Position numbers and translations under genes: made by a program
DNA from: a virus
Taxonomy: Duplodnaviria; Caudoviricetes
IMG/VR virus record: IMGVR_UViG_3300028832_000095
Span: 128,001 to 192,000 of that record
Reading direction: 5' to 3' (one strand)
Length of the DNA stretch: 64,000 nt
In this document: piece by piece, positions 7,606 through 63,712 of the stretch
How positions within the stretch are numbered: the first letter of the stretch is position 1
Layout: each line of letters begins with the position of its first letter
Notes under the pieces: model-generated
What the model was told of the DNA's origin: nothing
Seen by the model: only the letters and a program-made list of their open reading frames with translations
Database searches by the model: none

Positions 7606-7980
7606 ATGAAATTGTTTATTAAAGAAGGACGTTACGAAGATGATATGGCTGTTGCAAGACATATGTCAAAGTGGCTTGAACCAGATCCAGTAGATGATCC
7701 TGAAATGAGATACACCAGTGCAAAAATCACAGTGAGTTGTCTTGATACGGATGAGGATTATGAAACTGAGTTTGATTTCGATGTTTATAACTCTAAGAAG
7801 TTACCTAACGAAGATTTTGAAGAATATGTAAACAAGAATGCTTCACTTCTCGCACAGCAAGAATGTGAACAGGAAGGTTCTCTGGAGTTTATCGGAGTAA
7901 CAGATATTCAGTTTGAAGAAGAACCTTATTATGAAGATAAGTACGAGAACGATGATTTTTACGATCCATACGAATATTGA
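7606..7980 (+). CDS. Acidic protein with N-terminal MKLFIKE tag (candidate internal head protein)
   Basis: SD AAGGAG; D/E-rich. Confidence 0.6.
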   Translation: MKLFIKEGRYEDDMAVARHMSKWLEPDPVDDPEMRYTSAKITVSCLDTDEDYETEFDFDVYNSKKLPNEDFEEYVNKNASLLAQQECEQEGSLEFIGVTDIQFEEEPYYEDKYENDDFYDPYEY

Positions 7981-8014
7981 TTGATTGTTCTTCACATTAT
8001 AATTATTTATTCTA

Positions 8015-8048
8015 AACGTCACATTTATTTGTGGCGTTATTTTTTTTT
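8015..8048 (+). terminator. Intrinsic terminator
   Basis: AACGTCACA...TGTGGCGTT + T-run. Confidence 0.65.
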
Positions 8049-8059
8049 GAAATTTCCTA

Positions 8060-8088
8060 TTGACTTTTTTGAGTTATTGTGTTATAAT
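8060..8088 (+). promoter_or_regulatory. sigmaA-type early promoter
   Basis: TTGACT-N17-TATAAT. Confidence 0.85.
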
Positions 8089-8109
8089 ATGTTTACGGAG
8101 GTGTTGTAT

Positions 8110-8448
8110 ATGAATGAAATGCAAAGTAATTCATTAAAAAACATTAAAAGACAGGCTAATGAATATGCTGACAGTATTTTTGGAAGAGGACATATAAGAA
8201 CAATGAAATTAGATTCTTTGGAATATTTTATTTCTGCATGGTTTGAAATTTCTCCAATTGATGATGATATTGAAAAGTTTCCATACCCAACAGCACATAT
8301 TTATATTTATCCGGATGGTTCACTCAGATATCCAGTTCACATAAACCATGATATTTATGATGAAGATTACATAGATTTTAAGACAACTATTGAGTGTCAG
8401 TCGGCTAGAAATAAAAATATAAGAAAGGATGATCTATACTATGAGTAA
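8110..8448 (+). CDS. Hypothetical protein
   Basis: Start reassigned to ATG 8110 after GGAGG and promoter. Confidence 0.6.
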   Translation: MNEMQSNSLKNIKRQANEYADSIFGRGHIRTMKLDSLEYFISAWFEISPIDDDIEKFPYPTAHIYIYPDGSLRYPVHINHDIYDEDYIDFKTTIECQSARNKNIRKDDLYYE

Positions 8449-8752
8449 GAAGAAAGAAACAATTGAACCGGAACAGATTGGAGTTATTCTTAAAATTCCA
8501 AAAGGATGTAAAAAACTAACCCTTACAGCAATCATAGAGCAAGACGGAAAAGAATTGTCGGTATCTACTACGCTTAAAAAGAAAGCCCTTAAAACTGCTA
8601 GAAAAGACTTCCTTGATAATGTTGAATTTGGTGATGATTATGATGAAGTCTATGCTCTTACAGACGAAGGTAAAGCATACCTTAACAGTCCGGAAGGTAT
8701 GGCAGAATTGCGCAGAATCATCGAGGAAGAATTAGACAAAGAAGATAATTAA
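8429..8752 (+). CDS. Hypothetical protein
   Basis: ORF in operon. Confidence 0.55.
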   Translation: MIYTMSKKKETIEPEQIGVILKIPKGCKKLTLTAIIEQDGKELSVSTTLKKKALKTARKDFLDNVEFGDDYDEVYALTDEGKAYLNSPEGMAELRRIIEEELDKEDN

Positions 8753-8775
8753 ATAATAAAATTTTCTAAAAACAC

Positions 8776-8804
8776 TTGACTTTTTCCTTATAATGTGTTA
8801 TACT
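8776..8804 (+). promoter_or_regulatory. sigmaA-type early promoter
   Basis: TTGACT-N17-TATACT. Confidence 0.85.
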
Positions 8805-10473: not shown

Positions 10474-10477
10474 TATT

Positions 10478-12436: not shown

Positions 12437-12447
12437 AAATAAACAAA

Positions 12448-12499
12448 AATAGATATCATACATAATGTTAAAAACGTAACTATATGTATGATATCTATT
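12448..12499. repeat. 17-bp perfect inverted repeat upstream of gene 12525
   Basis: AATAGATATCATACATA / TATGTATGATATCTATT. Confidence 0.8.
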
Positions 12500-12524: not shown

Positions 12525-13319
12525 ATGGTATTATACTATGAGAACATAATTACAGATTTACGCAGAAACAATATTAAGGTGACACAGAAGGTATTTGACT
12601 ATTTGAATGAGTATGTAGATTTACAGAATTCAACAATAGAAAAAATGGAGCCGGAGACATATAGAGATTTGAAAGACAAGAATGTTCTTGTTGTTGACGA
12701 TTCAAATGTTATTGCTGTATATGGGCAAAATAAGTTTATGTATAATCCAAATAAGATAAAGGCTTCTGCTATTCCTGAGTATGATGTTTATGAGGTTATT
12801 CAGGGCGGTGTGAATGTTCAAAATAGGAGAGAACAAAGAAGAGATTACTTAAAAGGATTGTCAAGTACAAAAGATTCTAAATTCAGTAATGTTCCAAGAT
12901 CATCTAATTATATTTGGGATAAAGACTGGAATCCAGAAGTCAATAAGCGTTATTACACAAAGTTATTACAACAGAATCATCTTGGTAAATATGCACAACA
13001 GTTAAATGATGCCTATGATGTTGTTAAAGAACTAATAGATCAACGTAGAGAAAGATTGACTGGTAAGAGGTCTGAGTATGATAGAATCATAACTGATATA
13101 TCTAGGCAAATCAGTCGTATTGAAGATGAAATGGTAGCTGCCGAAAGAGATTTTAGTTTTGATCCAGATAAACTTAAAAAGGAAATTTCAAAACTACCAA
13201 GAATGATTAGCAATGCACAGTTCTTTATTGATACAGAGAATAAGGAATTTGCCATTGCTGCAAGATATAATGGAACAGGTAGACGTAAACCTATTCCATA
13301 TACTAAGATCGAGAAGTGA
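12525..13319 (+). CDS. Hypothetical protein with coiled-coil C-terminus
   Basis: 264-aa ORF, SD AAGGAG. Confidence 0.65.
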   Translation: MVLYYENIITDLRRNNIKVTQKVFDYLNEYVDLQNSTIEKMEPETYRDLKDKNVLVVDDSNVIAVYGQNKFMYNPNKIKASAIPEYDVYEVIQGGVNVQNRREQRRDYLKGLSSTKDSKFSNVPRSSNYIWDKDWNPEVNKRYYTKLLQQNHLGKYAQQLNDAYDVVKELIDQRRERLTGKRSEYDRIITDISRQISRIEDEMVAAERDFSFDPDKLKKEISKLPRMISNAQFFIDTENKEFAIAARYNGTGRRKPIPYTKIEK

Positions 13320-13352
13320 TTAAGTTAAATAAAAAACTTTTTCAAAAAGTCC

Positions 13353-13382
13353 TTGACAAATCTCCTGATAATATGTTATAAT
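13353..13382 (+). promoter_or_regulatory. sigmaA-type early promoter
   Basis: TTGACA-N18-TATAAT, TG extended -10, upstream A-tract. Confidence 0.75.
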
Positions 13383-13420
13383 ATGTTTATAGTATAATGT
13401 GTGATTGGAGGAAATAAGTC

Positions 13421-13813
13421 ATGATTAAGAAGTATATGAATCAACTCTATAAGGAAATCATGTGGTATAAGAAAAAGATTGATAATGGTAAGCTCCAATA
13501 TTTCGGGAAGAAGGATATCGGAGACACTAATTGTTTTACTGTTATTTTGAAAGACGGTTCGTATTTTTATATCAATATTGGAACTGATAAGATTCCGTAT
13601 GTTCAGAAAAGACAAGTAGCGTATATCTTTAAGGAATTGCACAGAAGAGATGACAGACTTAATAAGTGGTATTTGGATTCCATAGATTCTGACCGTGGGT
13701 ACTATTGTTACAAAAAAGAGGATATATACGGACAGAGTAACTATGTGACAGAAAAAATGAAATATTATAAAGTTGACTATAATAAAGAATATGATACTGG
13801 TTGTTGGGATTGA
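13421..13813 (+). CDS. Hypothetical protein, paralogue of 40979 (VILKD family)
   Basis: Shared M...L..E...K..I...YF...VILKD..YF...P...I.K...SD.G. Confidence 0.65.
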   Translation: MIKKYMNQLYKEIMWYKKKIDNGKLQYFGKKDIGDTNCFTVILKDGSYFYINIGTDKIPYVQKRQVAYIFKELHRRDDRLNKWYLDSIDSDRGYYCYKKEDIYGQSNYVTEKMKYYKVDYNKEYDTGCWD

Positions 13814-13870
13814 ACGAAACCTATATTGAATAGATATTAAAAATGAGATTATGAAGAGGAATGATGATTT

Positions 13871-14440
13871 ATGATAACCCTGATGAATGAAGATGTATTA
13901 TTTGAAAAACTAACTGGAAAACAATTCTTCCAATCACTTCTTGAATATCTAACAAAAGATACGATGATTAAATACGCCGATGATTATATTCCTAATTTTG
14001 ATAAATCAAAGAAACAGAAATATGCAAAAGAGTATCCGATCAAAGATATCAAAGATGATATCGCTTCTTTTATAGATGACTGGTTAAGCGAAATAAAGAC
14101 CGAGTGTGACGTTTACTCTATGAAAAATAATCGTAAGTCTGATTCCTATGGATTCTCAAATTATATAACACTATCCTTTAATCGTCCTGCTGATAGAAGA
14201 CTGTATCAGTTCTACAAGGATAACGATGAACTATATAACAATGTGAAATTCCGTTTCTCGGAACACGAATCCAGAAATGATGATTCTGATATTGAGGATT
14301 GGGTAAACTTCACTGGTAAAACATTTAACCAAGCAGCAGAAGAAATGAAGTATAAGATTCAAAACTATGTCGTAGACCTTAGATCAAAAGAAAAGCAATA
14401 TTTGAAGAAACTGGATAAGAAGAATAAGAAAAGATGGTGA
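13871..14440 (+). CDS. Hypothetical protein, paralogue of N-domain of 41698 (SNY...RFSxHE family)
   Basis: GFSNYITLSF...KFRFSEHE vs GLSNYIEVQF...TIRFSDHE. Confidence 0.65.
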   Translation: MITLMNEDVLFEKLTGKQFFQSLLEYLTKDTMIKYADDYIPNFDKSKKQKYAKEYPIKDIKDDIASFIDDWLSEIKTECDVYSMKNNRKSDSYGFSNYITLSFNRPADRRLYQFYKDNDELYNNVKFRFSEHESRNDDSDIEDWVNFTGKTFNQAAEEMKYKIQNYVVDLRSKEKQYLKKLDKKNKKRW

Positions 14441-14446
14441 TTATAT

Positions 14447-14722
14447 ATGATTATTCTTGAGGATGTTGGGGTTAAAGACAACCATATTAAAAAAATATAT
14501 GATATAATCAAACAAAATTTCGATAATAAAAACTATAAGTTCGAGGAAAAAATAGAAGATTATGTTATCTGGTGTGATAACGATAAAGAACGTGCTGTAT
14601 TCATTCAGGCAAAAGATGGTTCATGCTATGGAACTGTCTGTAAGAATGATATTGATACTGGTTCGGAAGCTGATATTTTAGATTATATAAAAGATCAGCT
14701 TAACGATACAAAAGACGATTAA
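14447..14722 (+). CDS. Hypothetical protein
   Basis: ORF in operon; starts MIILED. Confidence 0.55.
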   Translation: MIILEDVGVKDNHIKKIYDIIKQNFDNKNYKFEEKIEDYVIWCDNDKERAVFIQAKDGSCYGTVCKNDIDTGSEADILDYIKDQLNDTKDD

Positions 14723-17257: not shown

Positions 17258-18058
17258 ATGGTATATCAAAAAATTTTGAAGGAAAATACGATTTTTGATT
17301 ATACACAGGATTTAGATACAGATATTTTACATCTATCAACAGATGAGAGTGGTGTTAAAACAGCTAACGGTCTTACATATTTCTACGCATACCAATTCAA
17401 TCCGAAAGCGGATTATAACGAAGTAAAAACATTTAGAAAATTATTCAACTATAATTATAGAGATTCACATTATTTTTATAATGACGATGTTTTTGATTTC
17501 ATTGAGGTTGGAATGCTTCATATGGATCATTTCAAAAAATTAGAATCCTTTGATATTGTGTTCATGACAGATTTTGGAAACGGTACATCTGCAGGAGTTA
17601 TGGCATTGCTAGATAGTATGTTGTTAGAATATACAAATGGATCATTTCTTGATGTAAGACTTGTTAAAAAGACATATGAAAATGTTAAATTTGACAGGGA
17701 TAAAGCTAAACAAGCAATACTAAGTACAAATAAATATTCTAATGAATATCAGGCTGAACGTGCTGTAAGATCTATGGAGGATACATTTAATCAGTTGAAA
17801 ACAAGTGGCGAATTGTTCAAGATGAAAAGATATCTTCCGGCAGCTGGTAGAGTAGGTTTTTACAATTTTCTAAAATTTGATACAGAGGAGCATAAAAGTG
17901 CTTTTATGTCTATGGAAAACGGATCAGAAGCCCTTATATGTGATGATCTAATAACATCAGGTTCTACAATAAAAGAAATAAAAAGATATTTACACTCAAT
18001 AAATCCAAATGTAAATATAACAGTGTTTGTTCTTATAGATCAGATGAGAGAATATTGA
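17258..18058 (+). CDS. Phosphoribosyltransferase-fold protein
   Basis: C-terminal PRPP-binding loop ALICDDLITSGSTI. Confidence 0.7.
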   Translation: MVYQKILKENTIFDYTQDLDTDILHLSTDESGVKTANGLTYFYAYQFNPKADYNEVKTFRKLFNYNYRDSHYFYNDDVFDFIEVGMLHMDHFKKLESFDIVFMTDFGNGTSAGVMALLDSMLLEYTNGSFLDVRLVKKTYENVKFDRDKAKQAILSTNKYSNEYQAERAVRSMEDTFNQLKTSGELFKMKRYLPAAGRVGFYNFLKFDTEEHKSAFMSMENGSEALICDDLITSGSTIKEIKRYLHSINPNVNITVFVLIDQMREY

Positions 18059-29974: not shown

Positions 29975-30415
29975 ATGATTAAATTATATGTCGAAAGACG
30001 AAAGAGGTTATCAGAAAGTCTTGATGCCCCGTGTGAAGGGATATTTTGGATTATTGATAATGAACTAATCGCATACACAGATCAGGTTGATACATCTGGA
30101 AAATTATCTACCACTCTTGAACATAGGAAGATATGGAATGAGATTAAAGATAAGTACACAGATGATGAAATGCAATTAGTTCCTTATGATTATTATCCTC
30201 GTGGAAGAGTTATGGTGAATCCTATTTATAAAGATGGGAAGTTCGATCACTATAATGCATATATTTATATGGATGAATGTATCAAAACATATGAAAACAT
30301 AACTGATATAATCTATGAGTTTAGGCTTAAAAATAATTGTGATATTAAGTATGTTGGTTCATCTGGTGGTGTTGAATCAGGTCATTATGTATGTCATAAC
30401 TGCAAAGGAGGATGA
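29975..30415 (+). CDS. Hypothetical protein (YPRGRV family) with MIKLYVE...LSES leader
   Basis: GIFW...H..IW...YDYYPRGRV...HYVCHNC. Confidence 0.6.
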   Translation: MIKLYVERRKRLSESLDAPCEGIFWIIDNELIAYTDQVDTSGKLSTTLEHRKIWNEIKDKYTDDEMQLVPYDYYPRGRVMVNPIYKDGKFDHYNAYIYMDECIKTYENITDIIYEFRLKNNCDIKYVGSSGGVESGHYVCHNCKGG

Positions 30416-40129: not shown

Positions 40130-40951
40130 ATGTTTAATATGGATAATTATTTTGTTGGTGTGTTTAAGAATGATGATTACGATGCTGACGGCAATCGTAT
40201 CTATGATGATGTTTTTACATTTGACGATAGATCCGATGCTTGGGATGAAGCCCTAAAATGGAACCTAAAAGGATATTGGGTTGAATTCGCTTCCATTGAA
40301 AAAGTAGGTTATGGTGATTATAGAGATGACTATGACTACTACGAAGAAGAGGATTACAATACATATGATTATGCTCCCTATGAGATGAGAAAATATATGT
40401 CCTCTATGGGAGAATCAAACAGGAGGAAAAACATGAAACTTAGAATTGATGAAGATAACTATGGTTATGATTCTAATGGTAATGAGATTGATGAGTCTAT
40501 GGTAGAGGAACTTTATAGAGTTGCCAATAGTGAAATTCTTTCTGAGTCTGAATTAGCTAAGATTGGTTATGCTGATATTGATGAAGATTCGTGGGAAGTG
40601 TATAACACCGGAACGGCATACGGGATGAATCTTACATACAATATCAATTTTGATGTAGATAGTAATGCTATTGATCTTGAACAGTTTGTTACTGATAAAA
40701 ATATTCTAATACCTATTTTTGATGCAGATCATGCTACGGCAAAACTCAATTTCGTTATCCATGTCTATAACGGAACTGATATTGAAGTAGAACTTACTGA
40801 CTATTCTGTATATGACTGCGGAGACTTCTATAGTGAATATGATACAAATAACTTCAAGAGTTATGTCAATGTCAAAGCACTGGAACAGCTTGTAAAGGAT
40901 ATGTCTCAGGAAGTTGTAAATGAGATTCAGGGAACATTGAGTAATATTTGA
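40130..40951 (+). CDS. Acidic protein with in-frame internal start (MKLRIDE at 40433)
   Basis: AGGAGG-6nt-ATG at 40421-40435, in frame. Confidence 0.65.
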   Translation: MFNMDNYFVGVFKNDDYDADGNRIYDDVFTFDDRSDAWDEALKWNLKGYWVEFASIEKVGYGDYRDDYDYYEEEDYNTYDYAPYEMRKYMSSMGESNRRKNMKLRIDEDNYGYDSNGNEIDESMVEELYRVANSEILSESELAKIGYADIDEDSWEVYNTGTAYGMNLTYNINFDVDSNAIDLEQFVTDKNILIPIFDADHATAKLNFVIHVYNGTDIEVELTDYSVYDCGDFYSEYDTNNFKSYVNVKALEQLVKDMSQEVVNEIQGTLSNI

Positions 40952-41701: not shown

Positions 41702-42915
41702 TAATAATGATTGAACAGATAAAAAGAATATTTATAGATATACTTCCATCATATATTATAAAAGAGTATCTGATGGAAGAAATACTCGATCCTAACGATA
41801 CTATAATGTCTGGTAATAAATATAAGGATCATATTGAAACAAGAAAGAGTATAAACACACATCTAAAAGGACTTGCTACAAGAATTAGAAATTTACCGTA
41901 TATAAAAAGTTGTAATCCAGACCCATCCAGAAGTAAGGGAAAAGGACTATCTAACTATATAGAAGTTCAATTCAACTATCCAGACGGTTTAACAAAAGAT
42001 GAGATTGATAAGAATTATAAATATACAATACGATTTTCTGATCATGAGGATACACATAAAGATTCCAGAACTCATAAAACTTCTTATGTTGATGTTGTTG
42101 GTAGAAAAGTTAAGAATCTTGAAAAAGCAGGTATACGTGAGTTTAAGACATCGTTAGTTGATATACAAAATAAAATAAAGGATTTTGAGATTGGAAAATT
42201 TGGAGAACAAAAAACATTTATAAATAGAACAGATGAATGTAAACTACGAATAAGGGAGTTGACAATAAATGAGAACTTAGAAGAAATAGCTCCATCAACC
42301 TACTGTACCGATAGTGCAAAAGATATCGCTAACTGGATCGTAAATAAACCAAAACCATATAGAATTCTATATGATGTAAAATATGATATCTGGTGTATTG
42401 CGGATGCAATGTCTCAGACACACAGAGATATGTCAATAGATATGTTCGATACAGATACAAAATATCTATATGGGTATGCAAGAGATCTGGATAATGATAT
42501 TATAAAAATGCGCCAAATTGGTAATTATAGTAGTGGATGGACTGATGCGGAAGTATATTCAGATTTCCAGTTTGAACATAGAAATCTAGTAGGAATGATA
42601 TTCATTCCAAATAATATGAATTATAGAGACTATGAAGAATCTGGATTCTACGAGAATCAAACAAGACTTACAACCGGAACGATGTTTACATTATTCCCGT
42701 TCAACAGTACCGGAGTATTCAAGGATCTATATAGAAAACTATTTTACATGAATGCTATTCCTGTTTCTCTTAAACAGTTATTTAAGAACTGCTATAAAGA
42801 AATGGGAAGTGACTGCTTGGATAAGTTCTATCAAGATGCAGAAGCAATGGGATATTCAGAAAGTGAGATTCAGGACTTTCTAAACAGTCCGGAAATGGCA
42901 GATGTTGTTATATGA
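41698..42915 (+). CDS. Two-domain hypothetical protein (RFSDHE domain + second domain after KLRIRE linker)
   Basis: Paralogy with 13871; internal KLRIRELTINENLEE. Confidence 0.65.
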   Translation: MIIMIEQIKRIFIDILPSYIIKEYLMEEILDPNDTIMSGNKYKDHIETRKSINTHLKGLATRIRNLPYIKSCNPDPSRSKGKGLSNYIEVQFNYPDGLTKDEIDKNYKYTIRFSDHEDTHKDSRTHKTSYVDVVGRKVKNLEKAGIREFKTSLVDIQNKIKDFEIGKFGEQKTFINRTDECKLRIRELTINENLEEIAPSTYCTDSAKDIANWIVNKPKPYRILYDVKYDIWCIADAMSQTHRDMSIDMFDTDTKYLYGYARDLDNDIIKMRQIGNYSSGWTDAEVYSDFQFEHRNLVGMIFIPNNMNYRDYEESGFYENQTRLTTGTMFTLFPFNSTGVFKDLYRKLFYMNAIPVSLKQLFKNCYKEMGSDCLDKFYQDAEAMGYSESEIQDFLNSPEMADVVI

Positions 42916-51578: not shown

Positions 51579-51612
51579 ATATAATATAGTGGTAGATAAT
51601 ACCTACACATAT

Positions 51613-51641
51613 ATTATAACATATTTTATAGAAAATGTCAA
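51613..51641 (-). promoter_or_regulatory. sigmaA-type promoter (minus strand)
   Basis: TTGACA-N17-TATAAT on reverse strand. Confidence 0.8.
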
Positions 51642-53803: not shown

Positions 53804-53830
53804 GTTATAATAGAACTATTCTATAAACAC

Positions 53831-53859
53831 AGTATAACATATAATTGCAAAAAAGTCAA
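53831..53859 (-). promoter_or_regulatory. sigmaA-type promoter (minus strand)
   Basis: TTGACT-N17-TATACT on reverse strand. Confidence 0.8.
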
Positions 53860-55528: not shown

Positions 55529-55557
55529 TTGACAACGATTTGCAAATATGTTATACT
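55529..55557 (+). promoter_or_regulatory. sigmaA-type promoter
   Basis: TTGACA-N17-TATACT. Confidence 0.85.
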
Positions 55558-55563
55558 AAAAAT

Positions 55564-55766: not shown

Positions 55767-57062
55767 TTGGAACAGTCTTTTTTAAGTACAGTGGTTTCAT
55801 TGAAGAAATCTGGAATGGGCAACGGTGATATCTATAAAGTGTTGCATAATAAATTTCCAGAACTCACATATGAGTGCATTCGATCCAGAGTTAGAAGATT
55901 AAATATTGATAATATACAGACAGAAAGCGTAAGAGTAGAAGATCAGGAATTAGAACCACAAACAACCTCAATGGAATATCGCAAAGATGGAACTATTGTC
56001 TTTGAAAAAGTTATTTGTTTAGCAAAGAATCAGGAACTAACACCTGAGAATATACTTATTGCACATGGTATGAATCCTGATAAATGGGAGATTATTTCAT
56101 ATAAGAATAACTTTTGGCAATCGCAGAAAAAAGGTGGAGAGATATTAAACCTTTACCAAAGCAAGATTACCGCCAAACCAAGAAAAGAGTATATAAGCCT
56201 AGAAGATATCAAAAAACATTTTGATACTTTTAGCAGAGAACATAAAGCACCAACACCTTTTGATAACTATGTATATCCAAAAGGAAACAGAGAACTGTTA
56301 TATGAAATAAACATATGTGATCTTCATCTTGGAAGATTTTGTTATGACAACGAAACAGATGAACCACTAAGCACAGAGATCACAAAGAAAAGATACTTTG
56401 ATGTTATTAAAGCTGAGTGTGAAAGAATCAAAAGTTTTGGGAATGATGTTTCTAAAATCCTGTTTGTTTGGTCAAATGATTTCTTTAATTCGGACGGTAT
56501 ATCAGGATGCACAACTGGTGGAACTCCACAAGATACTGATAAGAAATGGCAAGAATTATATAAAATAGGAATTGAAATGCTTGTTGATACTGTTGAGATG
56601 TTAGTTCAATATGCTCCTGTTATTACATTCTATATAGCTTCTAACCACAGCCGTCAGGTAGATTTTTTTGCGATTAACTATCTGTATGCTTGGTTTAGAA
56701 AATATAGTAATGTCGATGTGTGGACTAACTGTTCTCCAAGACAGTATGTTGTATTTGGTCAAAACTTATTAGGTTTTGCTCATGGGTATTATGAAAAGAA
56801 AGATCAACTTCCATTTTTAATGAGTAATGAGTGTTCTAAAGAATGGTCTAATACAAAGTATAGAGAATTCCACTTAGCACATATTCACTCCGAGAAAGTA
56901 GAAGAAAAAGGCGGTATTGTATTCCGTTGGCTACCAAGTGTGACAAGTGCTGATACATGGTCAAAAGAATGTGGATATGTAATGGCAACAAAAAGAAGTT
57001 ATAGTTTTGTATATGATCATGATAAAGGACTTATTCAGATCAATTCAACTATTGTGGAGTGA
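55767..57062 (+). CDS. Calcineurin-like phosphoesterase with N-terminal extension
   Basis: CDLHLG, NDFFN, SNH, FAHG, HLAHIH. Confidence 0.75.
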   Translation: MEQSFLSTVVSLKKSGMGNGDIYKVLHNKFPELTYECIRSRVRRLNIDNIQTESVRVEDQELEPQTTSMEYRKDGTIVFEKVICLAKNQELTPENILIAHGMNPDKWEIISYKNNFWQSQKKGGEILNLYQSKITAKPRKEYISLEDIKKHFDTFSREHKAPTPFDNYVYPKGNRELLYEINICDLHLGRFCYDNETDEPLSTEITKKRYFDVIKAECERIKSFGNDVSKILFVWSNDFFNSDGISGCTTGGTPQDTDKKWQELYKIGIEMLVDTVEMLVQYAPVITFYIASNHSRQVDFFAINYLYAWFRKYSNVDVWTNCSPRQYVVFGQNLLGFAHGYYEKKDQLPFLMSNECSKEWSNTKYREFHLAHIHSEKVEEKGGIVFRWLPSVTSADTWSKECGYVMATKRSYSFVYDHDKGLIQINSTIVE

Positions 57063-57376
57063 TTTATGTGAGCAGATCATATAGGAAGAATCCTATTCTA
57101 AAAGATAGATATGGTTCTAAAGCATTGCGTTTTTTCAAAAGACAATCAAATAAAAAGGTTCGTAAGGATGACAATATTGCACAACATGGAAAATTCAAAA
57201 AGATTTATAACTCATGGGAGATACATGATTATATTGGAAGATACTCAGAACAGGAATTTCAAGAATCATGGAAATCAGAAACTTCAAAACCAAAATACTT
57301 ACAATGGATGCATAAACAATTTAAGACATATAAAGAAGCGCTTATATGGTGGAAGAAGAAATACAGATATAAATAA
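57059..57376 (+). CDS. Basic hypothetical protein
   Basis: SRSYRK.P...K...NKKVR...KK.Y.SW.I.DY. Confidence 0.6.
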   Translation: MIYVSRSYRKNPILKDRYGSKALRFFKRQSNKKVRKDDNIAQHGKFKKIYNSWEIHDYIGRYSEQEFQESWKSETSKPKYLQWMHKQFKTYKEALIWWKKKYRYK

Positions 57377-57381
57377 AGGAG

Positions 57382-57582
57382 TTGGTTAAATTGAAACTTA
57401 GAATCAATGAAGATACTGCTTGTATTCCTTCAAAAACATCTTATATGAATGAAGATGGATTTTATAATGGAATATATTATTTTGGAGATCCTAAACAGCC
57501 AAAGAGTTGGAGAGATTATGTAAAGAGTAAAAAGAAACAAACAGAAAAACTAACAATTGCAGAAACAGACGAACAGCTTTAA
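57382..57582 (+). CDS. Small protein with (M)KLRINE tag
   Basis: SD AAGGAG; probable TTG start 57391. Confidence 0.55.
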   Translation: MVKLKLRINEDTACIPSKTSYMNEDGFYNGIYYFGDPKQPKSWRDYVKSKKKQTEKLTIAETDEQL

Positions 57583-57594
57583 GGAGTTGTAATA

Positions 57595-58290
57595 ATGATA
57601 ATAGGTGGTATACAAAAACTAACACTTTTAGATTATCCTGAAAAAGTAGCGTGTACTGTTTTTACATATGGATGCAATTTAAGATGTCCTTTCTGTCATA
57701 ATAAAGCATTAGTTACAGAATCCGCAACAAATGTTATTCAGGAACAGCAAATATATGATTTTCTAAAAACAAGAAAAGGAATACTTGATGCTGTATGTAT
57801 CTCAGGTGGTGAGCCTTTTCTTAATTTAGATATAATTGATTTTGCTAAAAACATAAAAGAAATGGGATTCCTTGTAAAAGTAGATACGAATGGAACTTTT
57901 CCGGAACGATTAGAAGAACTATGTAATACCGGATATATAGATTATGTAGCAATGGATATAAAGAACAGTATTGATAAATATACCATGACTTGCGGAATAG
58001 ATAAGATCGTTGTTGGAAAAGTTATGAAATCGGTTAGTTACCTAATGTCACAAGATAAAGTTGATTATGAGTTCAGAACAACTTGCACAGAGACATTTCA
58101 TACTGAGGAAGATATAGATAAAATAGCTTCTTGGATCAAAGGATGTAATCACTATTATTTACAGAAATATCTTTATCGAGAATCCGTTATAGACAAAACT
58201 TGTTTAGAATGTAGTAATGAGAAGATGAAAGACTTCTTAGCTATTGCACAACGGCATATACCGAATACAAAACTAAGAGGAGTTGAATGA
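57595..58290 (+). CDS. nrdG: Anaerobic ribonucleotide reductase activating enzyme (radical SAM)
   Basis: GGIQKLTLLDYP, GCNLRCPFCHN, SGGEP, KVDTNG, YVAMDIK, YEFRTT. Confidence 0.88.
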   Translation: MIIGGIQKLTLLDYPEKVACTVFTYGCNLRCPFCHNKALVTESATNVIQEQQIYDFLKTRKGILDAVCISGGEPFLNLDIIDFAKNIKEMGFLVKVDTNGTFPERLEELCNTGYIDYVAMDIKNSIDKYTMTCGIDKIVVGKVMKSVSYLMSQDKVDYEFRTTCTETFHTEEDIDKIASWIKGCNHYYLQKYLYRESVIDKTCLECSNEKMKDFLAIAQRHIPNTKLRGVE

Positions 58291-58293
58291 GAG

Positions 58294-58533
58294 ATGAAAC
58301 TATATATTCACGAAAAAGGAAAAGATAATCACTATTTTTATGTTATGGGATGGAAGACAGATAATAAGCAATCTGCACCATATAAGAGATGTAAATTCGA
58401 TATCTATGATGAAGCAGTACAGTTCTTCAAAGACATATCTAAGGTATGTAAATATGTTGAAATGTTTGAGTATATTGGAGGAAAAAGAAAGTGGATCGCA
58501 GATACAGACGATACTTCCATTTTTGAAACCTGA
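58294..58533 (+). CDS. Small protein with MKLYIHE tag
   Basis: SD GAGGAG. Confidence 0.55.
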   Translation: MKLYIHEKGKDNHYFYVMGWKTDNKQSAPYKRCKFDIYDEAVQFFKDISKVCKYVEMFEYIGGKRKWIADTDDTSIFET

Positions 58534-58640
58534 TATGTAAAATAAATACAAATCACATAAAGATTCTAAGTAGTTTCTTCAACTACAATATTAGCAAAGA
58601 TTCTTTGTGTGATTTTTATTTTATTTTGGAGGTGGTCGAA

Positions 58641-59030
58641 ATGATCTATGTTCCGGTTGATGTAAGGGAACCGATAGTAGGTAAACCATCTATTAGAATA
58701 CAGAATGGACTAACTAATAACTTCCCAGAGATCGTTTTTGAACTTCACGATAAATGTAAATACTTTGATCTTGGTGATGATGTATCTTTAATGGCAGTTA
58801 TAACAAATACATATGAAGAATCTGTTGTGTTTACTGGTGAACTAAGTATATTGAATCCACATAGAGGACAGATTCTATGCAAACTCAGCGCAAAAGACTT
58901 TACTAGAACAGGGTTAAACACTTTAACTATCTTATGTACTTCACAGAATTTTGACATTTCATTTCAAAAAACGGTATTTGTAGAATCCATAAGTGATTCT
59001 ATATTAGATATTATGGAAAGGGGAAGCTAA
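58641..59030 (+). CDS. BppU-like baseplate upper protein domain
   Basis: Q......I.F.L.D....FDL...G...I.....G.I...L....T..G pattern; SD GGAGG. Confidence 0.55.
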   Translation: MIYVPVDVREPIVGKPSIRIQNGLTNNFPEIVFELHDKCKYFDLGDDVSLMAVITNTYEESVVFTGELSILNPHRGQILCKLSAKDFTRTGLNTLTILCTSQNFDISFQKTVFVESISDSILDIMERGS

Positions 59031-59032
59031 TT

Positions 59033-59422
59033 ATGAAAGAGTTTTTTATTGCGTTAGGATCAACGGTTGTTCTTATCATTCTTTCTAGTGTTCTTGTGGC
59101 GGTTGGTAGATTTGCCCATGTTCAGTTTGAAAGACTTAAACAAGCAACCGATAATGAAACATTAAAGAACCTTATATCTAAATTAGATTATATTGTTCAA
59201 TTATGTGTAGAAGCAACCAATCAAAAGTTTGTGAATGATAAAAAGAAAACAGGAGAGTTTACAAAAGAAGATATGGAAGAAGCATTTACACAAACTCTTA
59301 ACAATATCACTAATATGCTAACAGATGAAGATAAGGAAATGATTATAAGCAATTTCGGTGATGTTAGCACCCTTATCTGTAATTCTATTGAATCTTATAT
59401 TAAACAATCAAAAGACATTTAA
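59033..59422 (+). CDS. Putative holin (LL-H-like)
   Basis: One N-terminal TM; V..CVEATNQ.FV...KK.G.F...IE..I. Confidence 0.6.
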   Translation: MKEFFIALGSTVVLIILSSVLVAVGRFAHVQFERLKQATDNETLKNLISKLDYIVQLCVEATNQKFVNDKKKTGEFTKEDMEEAFTQTLNNITNMLTDEDKEMIISNFGDVSTLICNSIESYIKQSKDI

Positions 59423-59427
59423 GGAGT

Positions 59428-59829
59428 GTGACAATAATGGATAATGAAAAGATTGTAGAAAAAGTCGCAGAACATGATGTTCGTATAGGAGTTCTTGAAA
59501 GAGATCACGCCCAGCTAGAAACAGATGTTAAAAAACTATCAGACATGAATGTTTCTATACATGATATGCTTGGCGAAATGAAAGCTATGAGAATTGAAAC
59601 AAACGGCAAAATTGATACATTGGATACTAAGTTTGAAAATTTAACAACTGATGTGAAACAAGTAAAAACAGGATTATCTGAGGTATCAAATAAAGTCACA
59701 GAACTTGAGACAGTTCCGGATAAAAAAGATGCAAAACTCTTTAATGATATAAAGTATAAAATACTGTGGATCATTATAGCTGGAGCAGTAGGTTTTCTTT
59801 TAGCACAAGCATTTCCACAAATATTCTAA
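59428..59829 (+). CDS. XhlA-like coiled-coil membrane protein (lysis accessory)
   Basis: Coiled coil + C-terminal TM. Confidence 0.55.
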   Translation: MTIMDNEKIVEKVAEHDVRIGVLERDHAQLETDVKKLSDMNVSIHDMLGEMKAMRIETNGKIDTLDTKFENLTTDVKQVKTGLSEVSNKVTELETVPDKKDAKLFNDIKYKILWIIIAGAVGFLLAQAFPQIF

Positions 59830-59841
59830 GGAGAGGATTAT

Positions 59842-60144
59842 ATGGTTCGTCTATTAGAATATGAACAGTTGATACATGTTGATGCAAAAACAGAATTGAA
59901 AAAAGCTACAATTCAGTATGCTTTGTATAATGCTCAATATACAAGAAGATATGCAAAGTTTTATACTGGAAAATATTATATCACAGTTTCATTCAACCGT
60001 GATAATACAATTCAACTATCATCCAATTATCGTGTTGACATGAAGTTTAATAGAGACTTACAGCGATTGGAAGATCAAAAGTATACTCTTTATAAGACTA
60101 CATACTTTATTTGGTATTGGATGAATAAACTAAGAAAACTATAA
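59842..60144 (+). CDS. Hypothetical protein
   Basis: SD AGGAG. Confidence 0.55.
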   Translation: MVRLLEYEQLIHVDAKTELKKATIQYALYNAQYTRRYAKFYTGKYYITVSFNRDNTIQLSSNYRVDMKFNRDLQRLEDQKYTLYKTTYFIWYWMNKLRKL

Positions 60145-60161
60145 GAAAGGATCTAGTTGCT

Positions 60162-60875
60162 ATGAATAAATTTATTACAAAGGTTTTCAAAGGCGCAGGA
60201 GTTAATGCAAAAGTGTCTAAAGATTCTAAAAATCCAAGATTTAAGGTAGTAGAGAATAAGCTAACACTTGAAGGCGTTGTGACTCCTACAAGATATAAGA
60301 TGACAATCACAGATAATACTGGTGCTGAGATTGATGAACTTTCTGTTTCTATTAAGAATAGCAATGATGTTGTAAATAGAATCAATGAATCTATTCAAAC
60401 ACTTCAAATGCTTTCTAAGGCATATGACCACAAGAAACTTGTCGAGGAAGATGAAGAGTTTGATACTGTCACAGTAGATGATGAAGAAGAAATTATTGAC
60501 GAAGAGCCAAAGGATATTGTTGATGGTCTTGCAGAAGTATATGAGGATGTTCTTGATATCGCTGAAAAAGTACAGTCTTTAACAGATCTTGTTGATGATA
60601 ACGATGCAGAAACAATTAACAACATTATCGGAATAACAAGTTCTTTATATGATTGTGCCATTGATATTGATGATTTCAAAATGGAGTTAGAGCCAGAGGA
60701 AGAAGAGGATATGGACGAATCCTTAAACAGAAAAAAGACTTCTTCCGGATATGTTAAGAATGTTATCAGTAACCTTACAATGTCTGAATCACTGCTTAGA
60801 GGAAACAAAGAACTTAGAGATATCTATAATGCTATAAAGGATATTAAATCAGAGTTGATAGTTAGGGGATATTGA
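60162..60875 (+). CDS. Acidic protein, candidate prohead core/internal protein
   Basis: INES, KKLVEE, MDESL, MSESL sites. Confidence 0.5.
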   Translation: MNKFITKVFKGAGVNAKVSKDSKNPRFKVVENKLTLEGVVTPTRYKMTITDNTGAEIDELSVSIKNSNDVVNRINESIQTLQMLSKAYDHKKLVEEDEEFDTVTVDDEEEIIDEEPKDIVDGLAEVYEDVLDIAEKVQSLTDLVDDNDAETINNIIGITSSLYDCAIDIDDFKMELEPEEEEDMDESLNRKKTSSGYVKNVISNLTMSESLLRGNKELRDIYNAIKDIKSELIVRGY

Positions 60876-61309
60876 TTATGATCTTCTTAAATCATGAGGA
60901 AGAACCTGTTGTTACAATAAACAAAGACATGGTTCTTGATTATAAACAAACAGGTGACGATTGTTTAGTTGGAATTAAAAGAGAACTTTCTAAGCAGCTC
61001 GTATACTATATCTTATATACAGACCTACAAGAAGTGAATGCTTCATTTGGAACAATTATTGAAAAATTGCTTGATAATAAGTATTTAGATGTTCGTGATC
61101 TGGATAAAGACATAGCGAAACTAGATAAGAACTGCAAGGCTTTATTAAAAAGCTGTGATGGTTTTGTTGAAGAATATGTTATCGAAAATGTAAAAATATG
61201 GGTTGATAGACTTCTCCTTTGTGTTTCAAAGTTGAAGTATATCCTTGATAAGTTCTGTACTGATAATTCGGAGGGAGTATTTAGAAATGAAGTTCGTCCA
61301 GTTTTCTAA
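60872..61309 (+). CDS. Hypothetical protein
   Basis: Coupled ORF. Confidence 0.55.
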   Translation: MIMIFLNHEEEPVVTINKDMVLDYKQTGDDCLVGIKRELSKQLVYYILYTDLQEVNASFGTIIEKLLDNKYLDVRDLDKDIAKLDKNCKALLKSCDGFVEEYVIENVKIWVDRLLLCVSKLKYILDKFCTDNSEGVFRNEVRPVF

Positions 61310-61505
61310 TATGCCTGTAAAGGTAAGAATCAAATGGGTTCAGGATAAACTAATTAAGTTCGGTTATTTGTCTGAAGGGGAGAGTGTTCCATTTAAAAGA
61401 GATAAAAAATATATCAAAGCTCTTATGAGATTTCAAGATAATCATGGAATGACCCCTAATGCAGATATAACCGAACCTCTTTTTGATAAATTAAACTATA
61501 ATTAA
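61287..61505 (+). CDS. Stand-alone peptidoglycan-binding domain protein
   Basis: IKWVQDKL...GY...ALMRFQ..HGM...T...L. Confidence 0.65.
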   Translation: MKFVQFSNMPVKVRIKWVQDKLIKFGYLSEGESVPFKRDKKYIKALMRFQDNHGMTPNADITEPLFDKLNYN

Positions 61506-61525
61506 ATCAAAGGAGGATAATTTAA

Positions 61526-61906
61526 GTGAGATTCAATAAAAGGTTTAATAAGTTTTATGATAAAAAACTTAAAGAAGCAGATGATGCTGAAATTGAAAAT
61601 GATGAGATAGAAGAAATTGAAGATGTGATTGAGGAACTTGATATTGAAGCGGTACTTGAAGAAATAGCAGATAAACTAGGATTTGATTATACAAGTTCTA
61701 ATGGATCTGGATCATATTCTATTTCAGATAATGTTGAAGTTCGTGTTAGATTTACACCAAAGAAGATTTCAAGAATTCAAACTGTTATTCTTAAAAATCC
61801 GGCAAGATTTGATTGTACTAAAAATACAACAACAGTTGATAATTTATCAGTAGAACTACAAACAAGTGTTCTTATTATAAAAGAAATAAAACAAAAACTT
61901 ATGTAA
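61526..61906 (+). CDS. Acidic hypothetical protein
   Basis: SD AGGAGG, GTG start, KKLKEADD. Confidence 0.6.
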   Translation: MRFNKRFNKFYDKKLKEADDAEIENDEIEEIEDVIEELDIEAVLEEIADKLGFDYTSSNGSGSYSISDNVEVRVRFTPKKISRIQTVILKNPARFDCTKNTTTVDNLSVELQTSVLIIKEIKQKLM

Positions 61907-61915
61907 TGGGGTGTT

Positions 61916-62905
61916 ATGATGAAACTTGTGTTTGAAGATTTTGAAAGCACAACTTCTATTGGAACAGAAGATAATCCTCTTTCAGTTTTTGAACAAGGGG
62001 ATTTTGTGCAATACGGTGATTATGTCGATATAGCATCTGCTATGGAACCAATTGCAGATGCATCAAGTGTATACGAAGATTTAGAAGCTATTGGATTTGT
62101 ACTTATGTTAGCATCTAACGATATTCATACAATTCATATCAATGCCCACGGTAAGGATTTTACAAGACTTCACCTTGAAACAGATGAATTGTATAAACAG
62201 TTAAATGAGTACAGCGATACTTGCTTAGAGATGTGTTGTGAGGATGGACACTTTATTCACAATCTCAACAATGCAAAAGATTGCTTAACTCAGTGGAGTA
62301 TTGAAGTTCCTGACTGTGAAGGTTTTACTCTTATAGACGGGATTCGTGTTACAACGGAAATTCTTAATAATGTTATTGTTGCTATTTCAGAGGTATATAA
62401 TGATTGCACAACAGATGTTCAGTCTACATTAGATGAGTGGTTACGCTATCTAAATTCTAAGATGAACTATTTCCTCGGAAGAATTTTACAGGAAAGCAAA
62501 AAGCGTACAAATGAAAGTATGATGAACAGAAACACAAGACATGATAAAAAGAAATGTGTTTGTGAACATCTTGATTATCTGAAATTAGGTCAGCCTTATA
62601 AGATGTTCTGTCAGGTGGAAGACCATATTGATGATTATAATTGTGATACTGTTTCACTTAAACCGGGTGATTTCATTATAAGAGATTTCCAATTTGGTCA
62701 CTTGCCAAACGGAGGAAATAAAGGTTATATACCATATGAAGTAATTGATATTGAATATGATAGAGATGATGATAACGGCGGTTATTGGGATGCAAGAAAA
62801 AGACTTCACCTTTATGACGGAGAAGAAGATTTCTACATTGAGTGCTATAATGAAAGATTCAATGGTATGTTCCATAAACTGAAAAAGAGTTCTGTTAAGG
62901 AGTGA
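61916..62905 (+). CDS. Dps/ferritin-like domain protein with C-terminal extra domain
   Basis: HTIHINAHGKDFTRLHLETDELY...DTCLE. Confidence 0.65.
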   Translation: MMKLVFEDFESTTSIGTEDNPLSVFEQGDFVQYGDYVDIASAMEPIADASSVYEDLEAIGFVLMLASNDIHTIHINAHGKDFTRLHLETDELYKQLNEYSDTCLEMCCEDGHFIHNLNNAKDCLTQWSIEVPDCEGFTLIDGIRVTTEILNNVIVAISEVYNDCTTDVQSTLDEWLRYLNSKMNYFLGRILQESKKRTNESMMNRNTRHDKKKCVCEHLDYLKLGQPYKMFCQVEDHIDDYNCDTVSLKPGDFIIRDFQFGHLPNGGNKGYIPYEVIDIEYDRDDDNGGYWDARKRLHLYDGEEDFYIECYNERFNGMFHKLKKSSVKE

Positions 62906-62911
62906 TCTACT

Positions 62912-63145
62912 ATGAAAATAATGGGAGAAGAATTTTTTGATAAGGATGATTTTTCTTCCTTAGTACGAGACATTTATGATATGTTAAACGAAATAGAAAA
63001 AAGATCCCGTAAATATGAAAAATCCATTCGAACTGAAATTCGACTTGGTTTTGATCCAGACCCACAGGACGATGATCTAAAGAAACTAGACTTTATTCAT
63101 AACAACCTACTCGGTATTATAGAAGAGCTTGATGAAAGGGAGTAA
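62912..63145 (+). CDS. Hypothetical protein
   Basis: SD AAGGAG. Confidence 0.55.
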   Translation: MKIMGEEFFDKDDFSSLVRDIYDMLNEIEKRSRKYEKSIRTEIRLGFDPDPQDDDLKKLDFIHNNLLGIIEELDERE

Positions 63146-63151
63146 TTTATT

Positions 63152-63712
63152 ATGACTGAGTATGTAGCAGAAACAAGGATTTTTCTAAAAGAATATACAG
63201 ACGAAAGAGTAGATTATTATTGTGAAAAAGGTTATGTACCTACTGAGGAAGAAGTTATTGTTGACATTTATGAAGATCTAACTCCTATGTCTTATGACGA
63301 AGCACAATTATATAATCGTTCTGGAGTAGAAATTCTAAGTGTTGACGATTTAGCAAAGAACATTCAAAATCTAGTTTCTTTCAATCTAGATGAAATTGAT
63401 GAAAGCCTCAAACTTAAAATTCGTGAAGAGGTGGAATATACAGATACTATAGACGCTATCTATGATATCCTAAAAAGAAAATATAGAAACGATGATAGAT
63501 TTGTAGAAATTAAAGTAGTAAATAAACCAAGAAGAGCGGTTCATGTTGAAACAGAAAAAGAAATCGAAGACGGAGAAACCTTTAATATGGACAGATATAT
63601 CTATGTAGATGATTCTGATAGAATCACTATGGTTTCAAAAGATGATAAAACAAGAAAATTCGTAGATGTCGAAGCCGTTTCAGATTTCTTTGACGAATAT
63701 CTAAATTCATAA
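63152..63712 (+). CDS. Acidic two-part protein with internal IDES-LKLKIRE linker
   Basis: SD GGGAG. Confidence 0.6.
   Translation: MTEYVAETRIFLKEYTDERVDYYCEKGYVPTEEEVIVDIYEDLTPMSYDEAQLYNRSGVEILSVDDLAKNIQNLVSFNLDEIDESLKLKIREEVEYTDTIDAIYDILKRKYRNDDRFVEIKVVNKPRRAVHVETEKEIEDGETFNMDRYIYVDDSDRITMVSKDDKTRKFVDVEAVSDFFDEYLNS

Follow-up and report, generated by a model that had tools for sequence, protein, structure and literature searches.

The window analysed here is a stretch of 64,000 nucleotides taken from an IMG/VR contig of 201,895 bp (CheckV 84%), which belongs to an uncultured rumen/gut phage of ~200 kb. It probably infects a rumen or gut Firmicute. The consensus peptide M-K-L-x-I-x-E, or in its fuller form M-(I/V)-K/R-L-x-(I/L/F/V)-x-E, stands at the extreme N-terminus of 26 proteins of this genome under a strict definition, and nearly all of these carriers are orphans. 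Five of the ~26 carriers and three internal copies of the tag fall in the window. A sequence-only reading had listed such N-termini in the window; all were found where it placed them, most with a Shine-Dalgarno sequence 5–12 nt upstream.

All features of the window described below are on the + strand, and an arrow in a motif marks the putative cut. The gene at 7606..7980 is the last of a host-type promoter unit and encodes an orphan of 124 aa (MKLFIKE↓G) with no match in a Pfam search. Its orthologs P0123 and P0124 (55–57% identity) keep MKLTI(N/K)E, and residues 8–25 have diverged. In the protein of 146 aa at 29975..30415, a paralog of the g198111 cargo family, two tag-like elements are stacked at the N-terminus, MIKLYVE-RR-KRLSE↓S. 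The alignment places the invariant Glu within the second element; in G003 the homologous domain carries MKRYIQCA. Two small tagged proteins are encoded among enzyme genes, one of 63 aa with a TTG start at 57391..57582, (M)KLRINE↓D, and one of 79 aa at 58294..58533, MKLYIHE↓K, for which a Pfam search gave no match. A small unannotated ORF (57068-57376) follows directly on an exonuclease gene (55767-57062) and precedes the first of them, and a radical-SAM gene separates the two. The operon with the tagged genes of the 57–64 kb region is headed by a host-type consensus promoter at 55529..55560 (TTGACA-17-TATACT with TG), and a search for terminator-like sites on the + strand from 55.7 to 63.7 kb found none. 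The 100-aa protein at 59842..60144 is loosely tagged (MVRLLE↓Y), and its ortholog in G001 (49% identity) begins MLHIPMLTE. The 266-aa protein at 17258..18058 (MVYQKILKE↓N) has a C-terminal PRTase domain; the tagged g1904 (MKLEFE↓G), outside the window, is its paralog with 40% identity.

Internal copies were found in three ORFs. The 270-aa ORF at 40139..40951 contains an in-frame MKLRIDE at 40433 with AGGAGG before it; either translation is initiated there, or an N-terminal part that is acidic and Tyr-rich ends at a fusion/polyprotein junction. The 402-aa ORF at 41707..42915, without a match in a Pfam search, contains the cluster KLRIRE-LTINE-NLEE from 42241 (residue 179). The 186-aa ORF at 63152..63712 begins MTEYVAE↓T and has, behind an acidic stretch, KLKIRE at about 63410 (residue 87). 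The last two copies had been noted from the sequence, and both are present.

The gene at 61919..62905 encodes a tagged two-domain cargo of 328 aa. Behind its tag (MKLVFE↓DFE↓S) and ~50 acidic residues stands a Dps/ferritin-like domain (52-188), which the linker GRILQE↓SKKRTNE↓S joins to a second domain. The Dps-like assignment made earlier holds for this protein, which matches PHROG 3636 from residue 52 (E = 1e-9) and for which 13 of the 13 PDB matches were Dps/ferritin (best E = 0.004). G001 encodes the second domain on its own, in a gene of 129 aa that starts MLKIKVE↓S. The earlier proposal of cleavable polyproteins thus finds partial support, since the 61919 protein fuses, through a tag-like RILQE-S linker, two units that are tagged separately in a relative, and the internal motif KL[RK]IxE is in excess (4 observed vs 0.25 expected). 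To judge by the stacked and internal tags, some products may be trimmed at two or more sites or freed from fusions.

The enrichment of the tag was measured on our own gene calls across all 201,895 bp (310 proteins of at least 45 aa). The pattern ^M.{0,2}[KR]L.{1,3}E was observed 24 times, compared with 3.5 expected when residues were shuffled within each N-terminus and 4.9 when columns were shuffled; the maximum in 2000 shuffles was 12. The motif is therefore commoner than in shuffled N-termini. A stricter pattern was observed 14 times, with 1.0 or 1.6 expected under the two shuffles. Any hydrophobic-x-Glu (h-x-E) motif within the first 8 residues was observed in 63 proteins, with 30–39 expected and a shuffle maximum of 53, so that about half of this loose class is expected by chance and single weak assignments are uncertain. 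Three ORFs at 12525..14722 belong to it, with MVLYYE (12525), MITLMNE (13871) and MIILE (14447); the N-termini are as first read, but individually they are indistinguishable from chance matches. BLASTP on sequences without the first 12 residues joined only a few of the carriers. The shared motif on unrelated proteins is real, and its signal across the genome is stronger than that in the window. Other properties ascribed to the carriers fared less well. Their acidity is only modest (net charge −0.047 vs −0.025 per residue, p = 0.019), the supposed richness in [ILM]-x-E-S sites is not seen (0.11 vs 0.12 sites per 100 residues, p = 0.70), and Pfam and PHROGs gave nothing for nucleases among the cargo.

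The comparison genomes were the relatives L020, L022 and G001, the sister lineage G002/G003, and GXN1, the closest cultured relative. L020, L022 and G001 contain arrays of 6 to >10 proteins that start with MKLRINE or a variant and share no BLAST paralogy; MKLRINEDT, the start of the 57391 protein, also heads array genes in L020 and L022. The arrays are associated with structural modules, and in the source phage and in G001 they lie upstream of the terminase. The cargo set is hypervariable among related phages, and the distance from tag to domain differs among homologs. In an AlphaFold (AF2) model of the g198111 family (pLDDT 90), residues 1-8 are coil and the core begins at residue 38. For two cargo families, those of g198111 and the 61919 protein, the tag is thus predicted to lie outside the folded domain and would hence be removable. 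A search for N-terminal motif enrichment in GXN1, the control phage, found none. GXN1 encodes the head protease described below and lacks the tag repertoire, which counts against the reading as a protease-associated tag.

The expected gp21-type protease was found in the genome. The gene at genome positions 11130-12836 matches Peptidase_S77 (PF03420; 50.7 and 48.1 bits, cut-off 27) and PHROG 207, head maturation protease (E = 4e-40), and the catalytic His and Ser, aligned to T4 gp21 positions 85 and 140, are invariant. Its N-terminus MGKKVLIE-T aligns with MNEPQLLIE-T of T4 gp21, sharing L-I-E-T, and LIE-9 of T4 gp21 is a self-site (PMC9026906). It carries a long coiled-coil, scaffold-like tail, which has 20 h-x-E sites. 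The genome also has genes for a gp20-type portal and a gp23-type capsid protein. The capsid propeptide has six h-x-E sites within 62 residues, the last of which, L-A-E↓ATNSSNI, aligns with L-R-E↓STTTNSNSI of T4 gp24, whose short propeptide is cleaved by gp21 (PMC5694885). At the sequence level, the h-x-E end of the tag is the same motif as the sites in the capsid protein, the protease N-terminus and the scaffold-like tail. The cleavage rule of T4 gp21 is L/I-x-E (PMC9026906), and prohead-core proteins in the T4 record start alike (gp67 MEGLIE, gp68 MLLIPE, gp22 MLKEQLIAE).

The best evidence for a tag read by the protease comes from the sister lineage. Another tag, MK(R/K)YI(R/K)(S/A)(S/A/T), begins 27 proteins in G002 and 21 in G003. 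At the position homologous to L-A-E↓ATNSSNI, the capsid site of these phages is V/I-T-A↓ATNTTNI; the protease N-terminus is I-V-A↓D and I-K-A↓D, and the scaffold halves have 5-6 h-x-E sites vs 20-22 in the source phage. The cargo proteins follow the same division. The g198111 cargo begins MKLRIPE↓S in one lineage and MKRYIKS↓P or MKRHIMA↓E in the other (44-47% identity), and the g3901 cargo begins MKLTLE↓D in one and MKITA↓T or MKIISS↓R in the other. The N-terminal enrichment is largely reciprocal between the lineages, with a marginal h-x-E excess retained in G003 and neither kind in GXN1. Because the tag, capsid, protease and scaffold sites all go from Glu to Ala/Ser together, the end of the tag behaves as a lineage-specific head-protease site. 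This is what a tag read by the protease would predict, and the covariation depends on one evolutionary switch between two lineages.

We consider it reasonably probable that the peptide is a T4-style capsid-targeting/propeptide tag with a large repertoire. The ~26 tagged proteins would then probably be packed into the capsid and cut, like a few internal proteins of T4. The tag would dock a protein onto the scaffolding core of the assembling prohead. The gp21-type serine protease with its scaffold-like coiled-coil tail would cut the tag after Glu (P3 = Ile/Leu, P1 = Glu), and would cut the capsid propeptide, its own N-terminus and the scaffold at sites of the same kind. After clipping, the cargo would remain with the DNA inside the head and would probably enter the next host alongside it. 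The portable head-loading tag of the sequence-only reading draws support from the protease, the h-x-E end and the covariation; early-looking promoters speak against it, and its nuclease cargo was not borne out.

Those promoters give some weight to an explanation by an N-terminal signal of early proteins (a degron, or an optimum of translation initiation or of the nascent peptide) on host-takeover proteins, in which the likeness to protease sites would be a coincidence. The genome has 34 near-identical host-type promoters, and the operons behind them contain many of the tagged genes. It had been claimed that none is the first gene behind a sigmaA promoter, which is true within the window but not genome-wide, as the tagged genes at genome positions 193113 and 118885 are first in line. 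Small orphan genes near the contig ends look like early host-takeover clusters, and the tag codons are AU-rich (AAA, TTA/CTT, ATT, GAA). In T4, the packaged Alt and gp68 are products of late genes (PMC9697503), with which the early-looking promoters before many tagged genes conflict. A search for a late-promoter motif in the phage found none, and late-type genes (a tail-fibre-like gene and an endolysin) likewise lie within host-type promoter units. The shift from Glu to Ala/Ser shared with the capsid, protease and scaffold sites has no account under an early-protein signal. Residue order is strongly non-random even though the shuffle within each N-terminus preserves composition, the internal copies at domain junctions exceed expectation, and tagged genes are associated with structural ones, within the head module of G002 and flanking the tail tube of G003. 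We believe this explanation to be unlikely.

It is less likely still that the tag is a by-product of DNA recombination, with a ~21-nt tag-coding repeat at the head of each gene serving mainly as microhomology for cassette shuffling in a hyperplastic region. Several genes in the relatives have identical ATGAAATTAAGAATTAATGAA, the tag codons supply the commonest 12-mers in the G002 genome, and array content is very different among relatives. The preferred AT-rich codons would yield identical DNA anyway. In the source genome the codons vary widely (six Leu codons; K/R and I/L/F/V swaps) and h-x-h-x-E is retained. In the arrays of the relatives, the upstream DNA is conserved no further than the RBS, and orthologs exchange tag variants with the pattern retained; the covariation with capsid and protease sites is also left unexplained. 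Descent from one fast-diverging paralog family, of which only the N-terminal strand would be recognisable and without a separate function of the tag, is highly improbable, because although carriers cluster in tandem and a real paralog family (g198111, g157975, g198628, g110389, g70903) has an invariant Glu in a tag-like element, the carriers are 63 to 358 aa long and differ in domain content (Dps-like, PRTase, the g198111 fold), most lack mutual BLAST similarity in three genomes, and the tag stands at varying distances from homologous domains, with extra tags stacked ahead of old ones.

If the peptide is a capsid-targeting tag, a broader and more doubtful possibility is that about 1/10 of the proteome is a hypervariable, dual-use, injected arsenal that can be read from the sequence. 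Proteins made from host-type promoters would serve in the ongoing infection and would also be carried into progeny heads by means of the 7-residue tag, and stacked and internal tags would free several products from fusions. The sister gp21-type protease would have changed its P1 preference, and all of its substrates, the cargo among them, would have been recoded from Glu to Ala/Ser. In the cited literature, cleavage by gp21 relatives is described only after Glu.

The closest known system is that of phage T4, in which a capsid-targeting sequence (CTS) on IPI, IPII, IPIII and Alt, and the gp24 propeptide, are removed by gp21 (Mullaney and Black 1996; PMC9026906, PMC3012670, PMC5694885). The T4 propeptides span 7 residues (Alt) to 65 (gp23) (same sources). 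As in the source phage, a short N-terminal peptide is common to unrelated proteins and has a hydrophobic-x-Glu end that follows the gp21 rule, one genome combines a gp21-type S77 protease with a gp20-type portal and a gp23-type capsid protein, and cargo is hypervariable among relatives. T4 differs in having a handful of carriers instead of ~26, and its CTS has another sequence and 10 residues vs 6-9, so that the 7-residue tag counts against the parallel. The source phage adds stacked and internal tag copies and fused cargo, its carriers often stand behind host-type promoters and are not recognisably late, its protease is fused to the long coiled-coil tail, its host is probably a Firmicute, and its targeting, cleavage and injection are predicted from sequence. 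In phiKZ, 201phi2-1 and SPN3US, propeptides of ejection and inner-body proteins are cut after Glu (S/A-x-E, A-x-E) by the gp21-related gp175 and gp245 (PMC9026906, PMC5694885, PMC10052503). These giant phages likewise use a diverged gp21 homolog to process many head-internal proteins after Glu, with propeptides thought to direct the proteins into the prohead. Unlike the tag described here, their propeptides are mostly long (20 to >100 residues) and lack a common short tag, their P3 is small (Ser/Ala/Gly) instead of Ile/Leu, and the findings rest on virion mass spectrometry. The anti-restriction protein DarB of phage P1 has an N-terminal capsid-targeting signal (PMC9024508), which suffices to load a heterologous protein into the capsid. 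The Dar proteins differ in having no consensus tag and no link to a gp21-type cleavage motif, and their signal is between 9 and 30 residues.

The tag, an N-terminal M-K-L-x-I-x-E peptide, is strongly enriched in the analysed phage. The N-termini and internal sites cited by the sequence-only reading were all found at their positions. The pattern ^M.{0,2}[KR]L.{1,3}E matched 24 N-termini, compared with 3.5 expected when each N-terminus was shuffled and 4.9 when columns were shuffled, and the maximum in 2000 shuffles was 12 matches. The proposed excess over shuffled N-termini was confirmed, and the genome-wide signal was much stronger than that of the window alone. The tag was not enriched in the control phage GXN1. 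A strict definition gave 26 carriers on the whole contig. A SNF2 helicase (genome 46371) and QueE (genome 61028) matched only a loose regex and were discarded as chance hits to ordinary enzymes. One cluster of carriers lies at genome 193-201 kb, with tags on about nine of its first 12 genes, and another at genome 1.9-6.1 kb, directly upstream of the terminase gene. By synteny with the tag-bearing relative G001, the two ends of the contig are one region. When 12 residues were trimmed, few carriers were linked by BLASTP. Pfam and PHROGs searches of about 35 tagged proteins returned almost nothing: only a PRTase C-domain in the phage gene g1904 and its paralog, and a Dps-like domain in window gene 61919. 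The putative nuclease cargo was not borne out, as no nuclease domain was found among the tagged proteins. Nor were tagged proteins richer in [ILM]-x-E-S than others, as had been claimed (p = 0.70), and their reported acidity exceeded that of other proteins only slightly (p = 0.019).

The source contig is 201,895 bp long (IMG/VR class linear; CheckV 84% complete; approximately 32% G+C), the window covers its bases 128001-192000, and 315 of the 321 genes called in this analysis on the whole contig lie on the + strand. The nearest cultured phages are large Firmicute myoviruses, namely Streptococcus GXN1, Listeria LIS04, and Bacillus SP-15 and HSE3, with portal identities of at most 38%. A single MAG label suggests that the host may be of Ruminococcus type. 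No cultured-phage match to 8 kb of the window was obtained by megablast. A T4-type head module lies outside the window on this contig. It contains a terminase large subunit with an intein (genome 6324-8750; Pfam Intein_splicing, 56.6 bits, residues ~590-676), a gp20-type portal (Pfam Portal_T4, 174 bits) and a gp23-type capsid gene split by homing-endonuclease genes. The G001 terminase ortholog is 941 aa long and has its insert placed differently.

A gp21-type protease was looked for in the genome and found. The prohead protease (genome 11130-12836, 568 aa) has a Peptidase_S77 (T4 gp21) domain in its first ~170 residues, and the remainder is coiled coil. It retains the His and Ser that correspond in alignment to T4 gp21 residues 85 and 140. 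Its scaffold-like coiled-coil tail of about 370 aa has 20 hydrophobic-x-Glu (h-x-E) sites, and no separate gp22-like scaffold gene was seen adjoining the protease gene. T4 gp21 cleaves after the Glu of L/I-x-E, T4 propeptides are 7 to 65 residues long, and for targeting, residues 1-10 of IPIII are enough (PMC9026906). The short propeptides of T4 gp24 and the internal proteins are named CTS (PMC5694885), that of gp24 being N-terminal (PMC5694885; T4 record note). The T4 record also has short h-x-E starts in gp67 (MEGLIE), gp68 (MLLIPE) and gp22 (MLKEQLIAE). In the analysed phage, MGKKVLIE-T at the protease N-terminus lines up with MNEPQLLIE-T (the 'LIE-9' self-site) of T4, and the capsid propeptide has the h-x-E-type sites MINE, LLE, LIE, IAE, TLE and LAE. 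The final site, L-A-E↓ATNSSNI (↓, predicted cut point), aligns with T4 gp24 L-R-E↓STTTNSNSI, in which the cut presumably falls after Glu10.

The Dps-like protein (window 61919) was confirmed: it matched PHROG 3636 from residue 52 (E = 1e-9), and 13 of 13 PDB matches were Dps/ferritin. The tag is followed by ~50 acidic residues, the Dps-like domain, the linker GRILQE↓SKKRTNE↓S and a second domain, which is a separate gene in G001 starting with MLKIKVE↓S. In g198111 (genome 198111-198608), its G001 ortholog and window gene 29975, a second MKLxIxE is stacked before a tag-like M-(I/L)-L-K-E-(S/D); in an alignment of paralogs, A1, three members begin directly with this latter motif, which holds the invariant Glu. 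Also invariant in this cargo family, whose paralogs include window 29975-30415, are GIFW, PRGR and a C-terminal His. An AlphaFold model of the family (25 sequences, pLDDT 90, pTM 0.81) has residues 1-8 as coil, a helix at 18-31 and a beta core from residue 38, and Foldseek found no PDB match at E of 0.001 or better. Internal KL[RK]IxE occurred four times versus 0.25 expected, and three of the four are in the window (40433, 42241 and ~63410). The stacked tags, the two fused units of 61919 and this internal excess lend the proposed cleavable fusions partial support at the level of sequence.

The tag is conserved in relatives. G001 (portal identity 59%) has six tag-like N-termini immediately upstream of its terminase. 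The related viral contigs L020 and L022 carry arrays of at least 10 genes of varied lengths, starting with MKLRINE, MKLRIKE, MKLQIKE, MKIKIKE or MIIKE. No BLAST paralogy was found among the genes of one array, and the upstream DNA was not conserved past the RBS. Between L020/L022 orthologs the tag variant is exchanged and the h-x-h-x-E pattern is kept. Orthologs of window gene 7606 keep MKLTI(N/K)E, and the following ~18 residues diverge. Such a tag is also retained in metagenomic homologs of g198111, which number 705 and lie on contigs of up to 294 kb. Conservation of this kind points to the peptide as the object of selection, and not to a DNA cassette or shared descent.

The main difficulty for a capsid-loading reading is timing. 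The T4 genes alt and 68 are late (PMC9697503). In the analysed phage, 34 host-type promoters of nearly identical sequence, TTGACA-N12-TGTGTTATACTATA, were counted on the + strand of the whole genome, and the structural block at genome 6-43 kb lacks them. In the window, + strand promoters end at about 5666, 8091, 8807, 15148, 21271, 25411, 28667, 34101, 39584, 53932 and 55560. Conservation of the consensus, TTGACA-N12-TGTGTTATACTATATTTACA, runs well beyond the -10 element. Units rich in tags are headed by such promoters. The claim that no tagged gene is first behind a sigmaA promoter failed genome-wide, as genome 193113 and 118885 are both directly behind one. Window promoter 55529 heads the operon with 57391-63712, and no terminator-like site was found on the + strand at window 55.7-63.7 kb. 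Small tagged genes near window 57391 sit among enzyme genes, with an exonuclease (55767) upstream and a radical-SAM gene (57595) between them.

A reading of these units as early only is opposed by the late-type genes that they contain and by the array positions in G002 and G003, a sister lineage with a different tag. The tail-fibre-like and endolysin genes lie kilobases downstream of a host-type promoter. They have no other recognisable promoter, so late promoters must exist. The head module of G002 includes a block of tagged genes, placed between those for capsid and decoration proteins, and in G003 tag arrays flank the tail-tube gene. No clean late-promoter motif emerged from a k-mer contrast of regions upstream of structural, tagged and other genes or from counting TATAAATA-like words. 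Footprinting against G001 yielded no more than hints: TATAAT/TATATG beside a GAAAGGA RBS, seen at the capsid gene and at some of the tagged ones. The G003 52-bp 'DTR' proved to be an assembly overlap, so distance from the contig end is uninformative on timing; the 69-nt end repeats of G003 were ruled out as promoters of tagged genes.

Other local elements were observed. The gap at window 7509-7605, upstream of tagged gene 7606, has two copies of the direct repeat CAAACATATATAAT, found in no other intergenic region of the genome; it is a candidate for a private promoter or operator. Two tagged gene pairs, MVKKLRLDE/MVKKLRLSE and MIRRLNE/MIKRLNE (genome 118.7-120.3 kb and 122.9-124.3 kb), have their own upstream regions of 120-230 nt each. 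There, an inverted repeat separates an A-rich promoter-like stretch from a GAAAGGA RBS and may form a regulatory hairpin common to their 5' UTRs. A minus-strand gene island (window 51300-51563 and 53101-53803) flanks the + strand endolysin gene (51679-53052), with minus-strand host-type promoters at ~51610-51641 and ~53828-53859.

The covariation test used G002 (171 kb) and G003 (159 kb), both complete; their proteases share 26-28% identity with that of the analysed phage, to which they are related. MK(R/K)YI(R/K)(S/A)(S/A/T) starts 27 proteins in G002 and 21 in G003. The homologous capsid site is V-T-A↓ATNTTNI or I-T-A↓ATNTTNI, the capsid propeptides hold PIMAS and PVMAS, and I-V-A↓D and I-K-A↓D stand at the N-termini of the proteases. 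The scaffold-like tails have 5-6 h-x-E sites, versus 20-22 in the analysed phage and G001, and 7-9 h-x-[AS][AS] sites, versus 0-2. At N-termini, h-x-E was observed 63 times in the analysed phage (30-39 expected), 18 in G002 (15), 31 in G003 (20-24) and 21 in GXN1 (20-21); the counts of h-x-[AS][AST] were 3 (5), 27 (7.7), 27 (7.4-11) and 5 (5), respectively. The enrichment of the two site types is largely reciprocal between lineages. Individual genes switched as well: MKLRIPE↓S of g198111 becomes MKRYIKS↓P and MKRHIMA↓E at 44-47% full-length identity, MKLTLE↓D of g3901 becomes MKITA↓T and MKIISS↓R, and the g157975/g110389 domain has MKRYIQCA in G003. In G002, the tag codons rank first among 12-mers of the genome by frequency, and a second tag subtype, MKR(T/Q)FT...AS, lies inside the head module (72382-71280). 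Ala at the capsid maturation site and the changed tags imply that the G002/G003 protease would have lost cutting after Glu. This co-switch of tag, capsid and protease, a single evolutionary switch, is what would be expected if the head protease reads the tag end. Models in which the tag serves translation, degradation or recombination have difficulty accounting for it.

Overall, we lean towards the reading that the tag loads proteins into the capsid on the T4 CTS principle. If it works as in T4, the proteins shipped with DNA become readable from sequence across an abundant rumen/gut phage clade. T4 packaged cargo is a first-response counter-defence: IPI acts against GmrSD, and IPIII is required on E. 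coli ECOR17 (PMC9026906; bioRxiv 10.1101/2022.04.14.488369). On this ground, the ~26 orphans, including the Dps-like protein and the family without a solved fold relative, would be prioritised candidate anti-defence or host-takeover factors. The co-change of tag and capsid site is a natural experiment in which the specificity of a gp21-type protease would change in step with all its substrates. For loading foreign proteins into Firmicute phage capsids, a 7-residue tag would offer a compact handle. Our literature search found no paper joining 'capsid targeting' with metagenomic phages. Compared with the T4 CTS, the tag here is shorter (6-9 residues) and has ~26 carriers, many of which lie in a host-type promoter context; tags are also stacked or internal, cargo is fused, the protease is fused to a scaffold-like tail, and the phage belongs to another clade.
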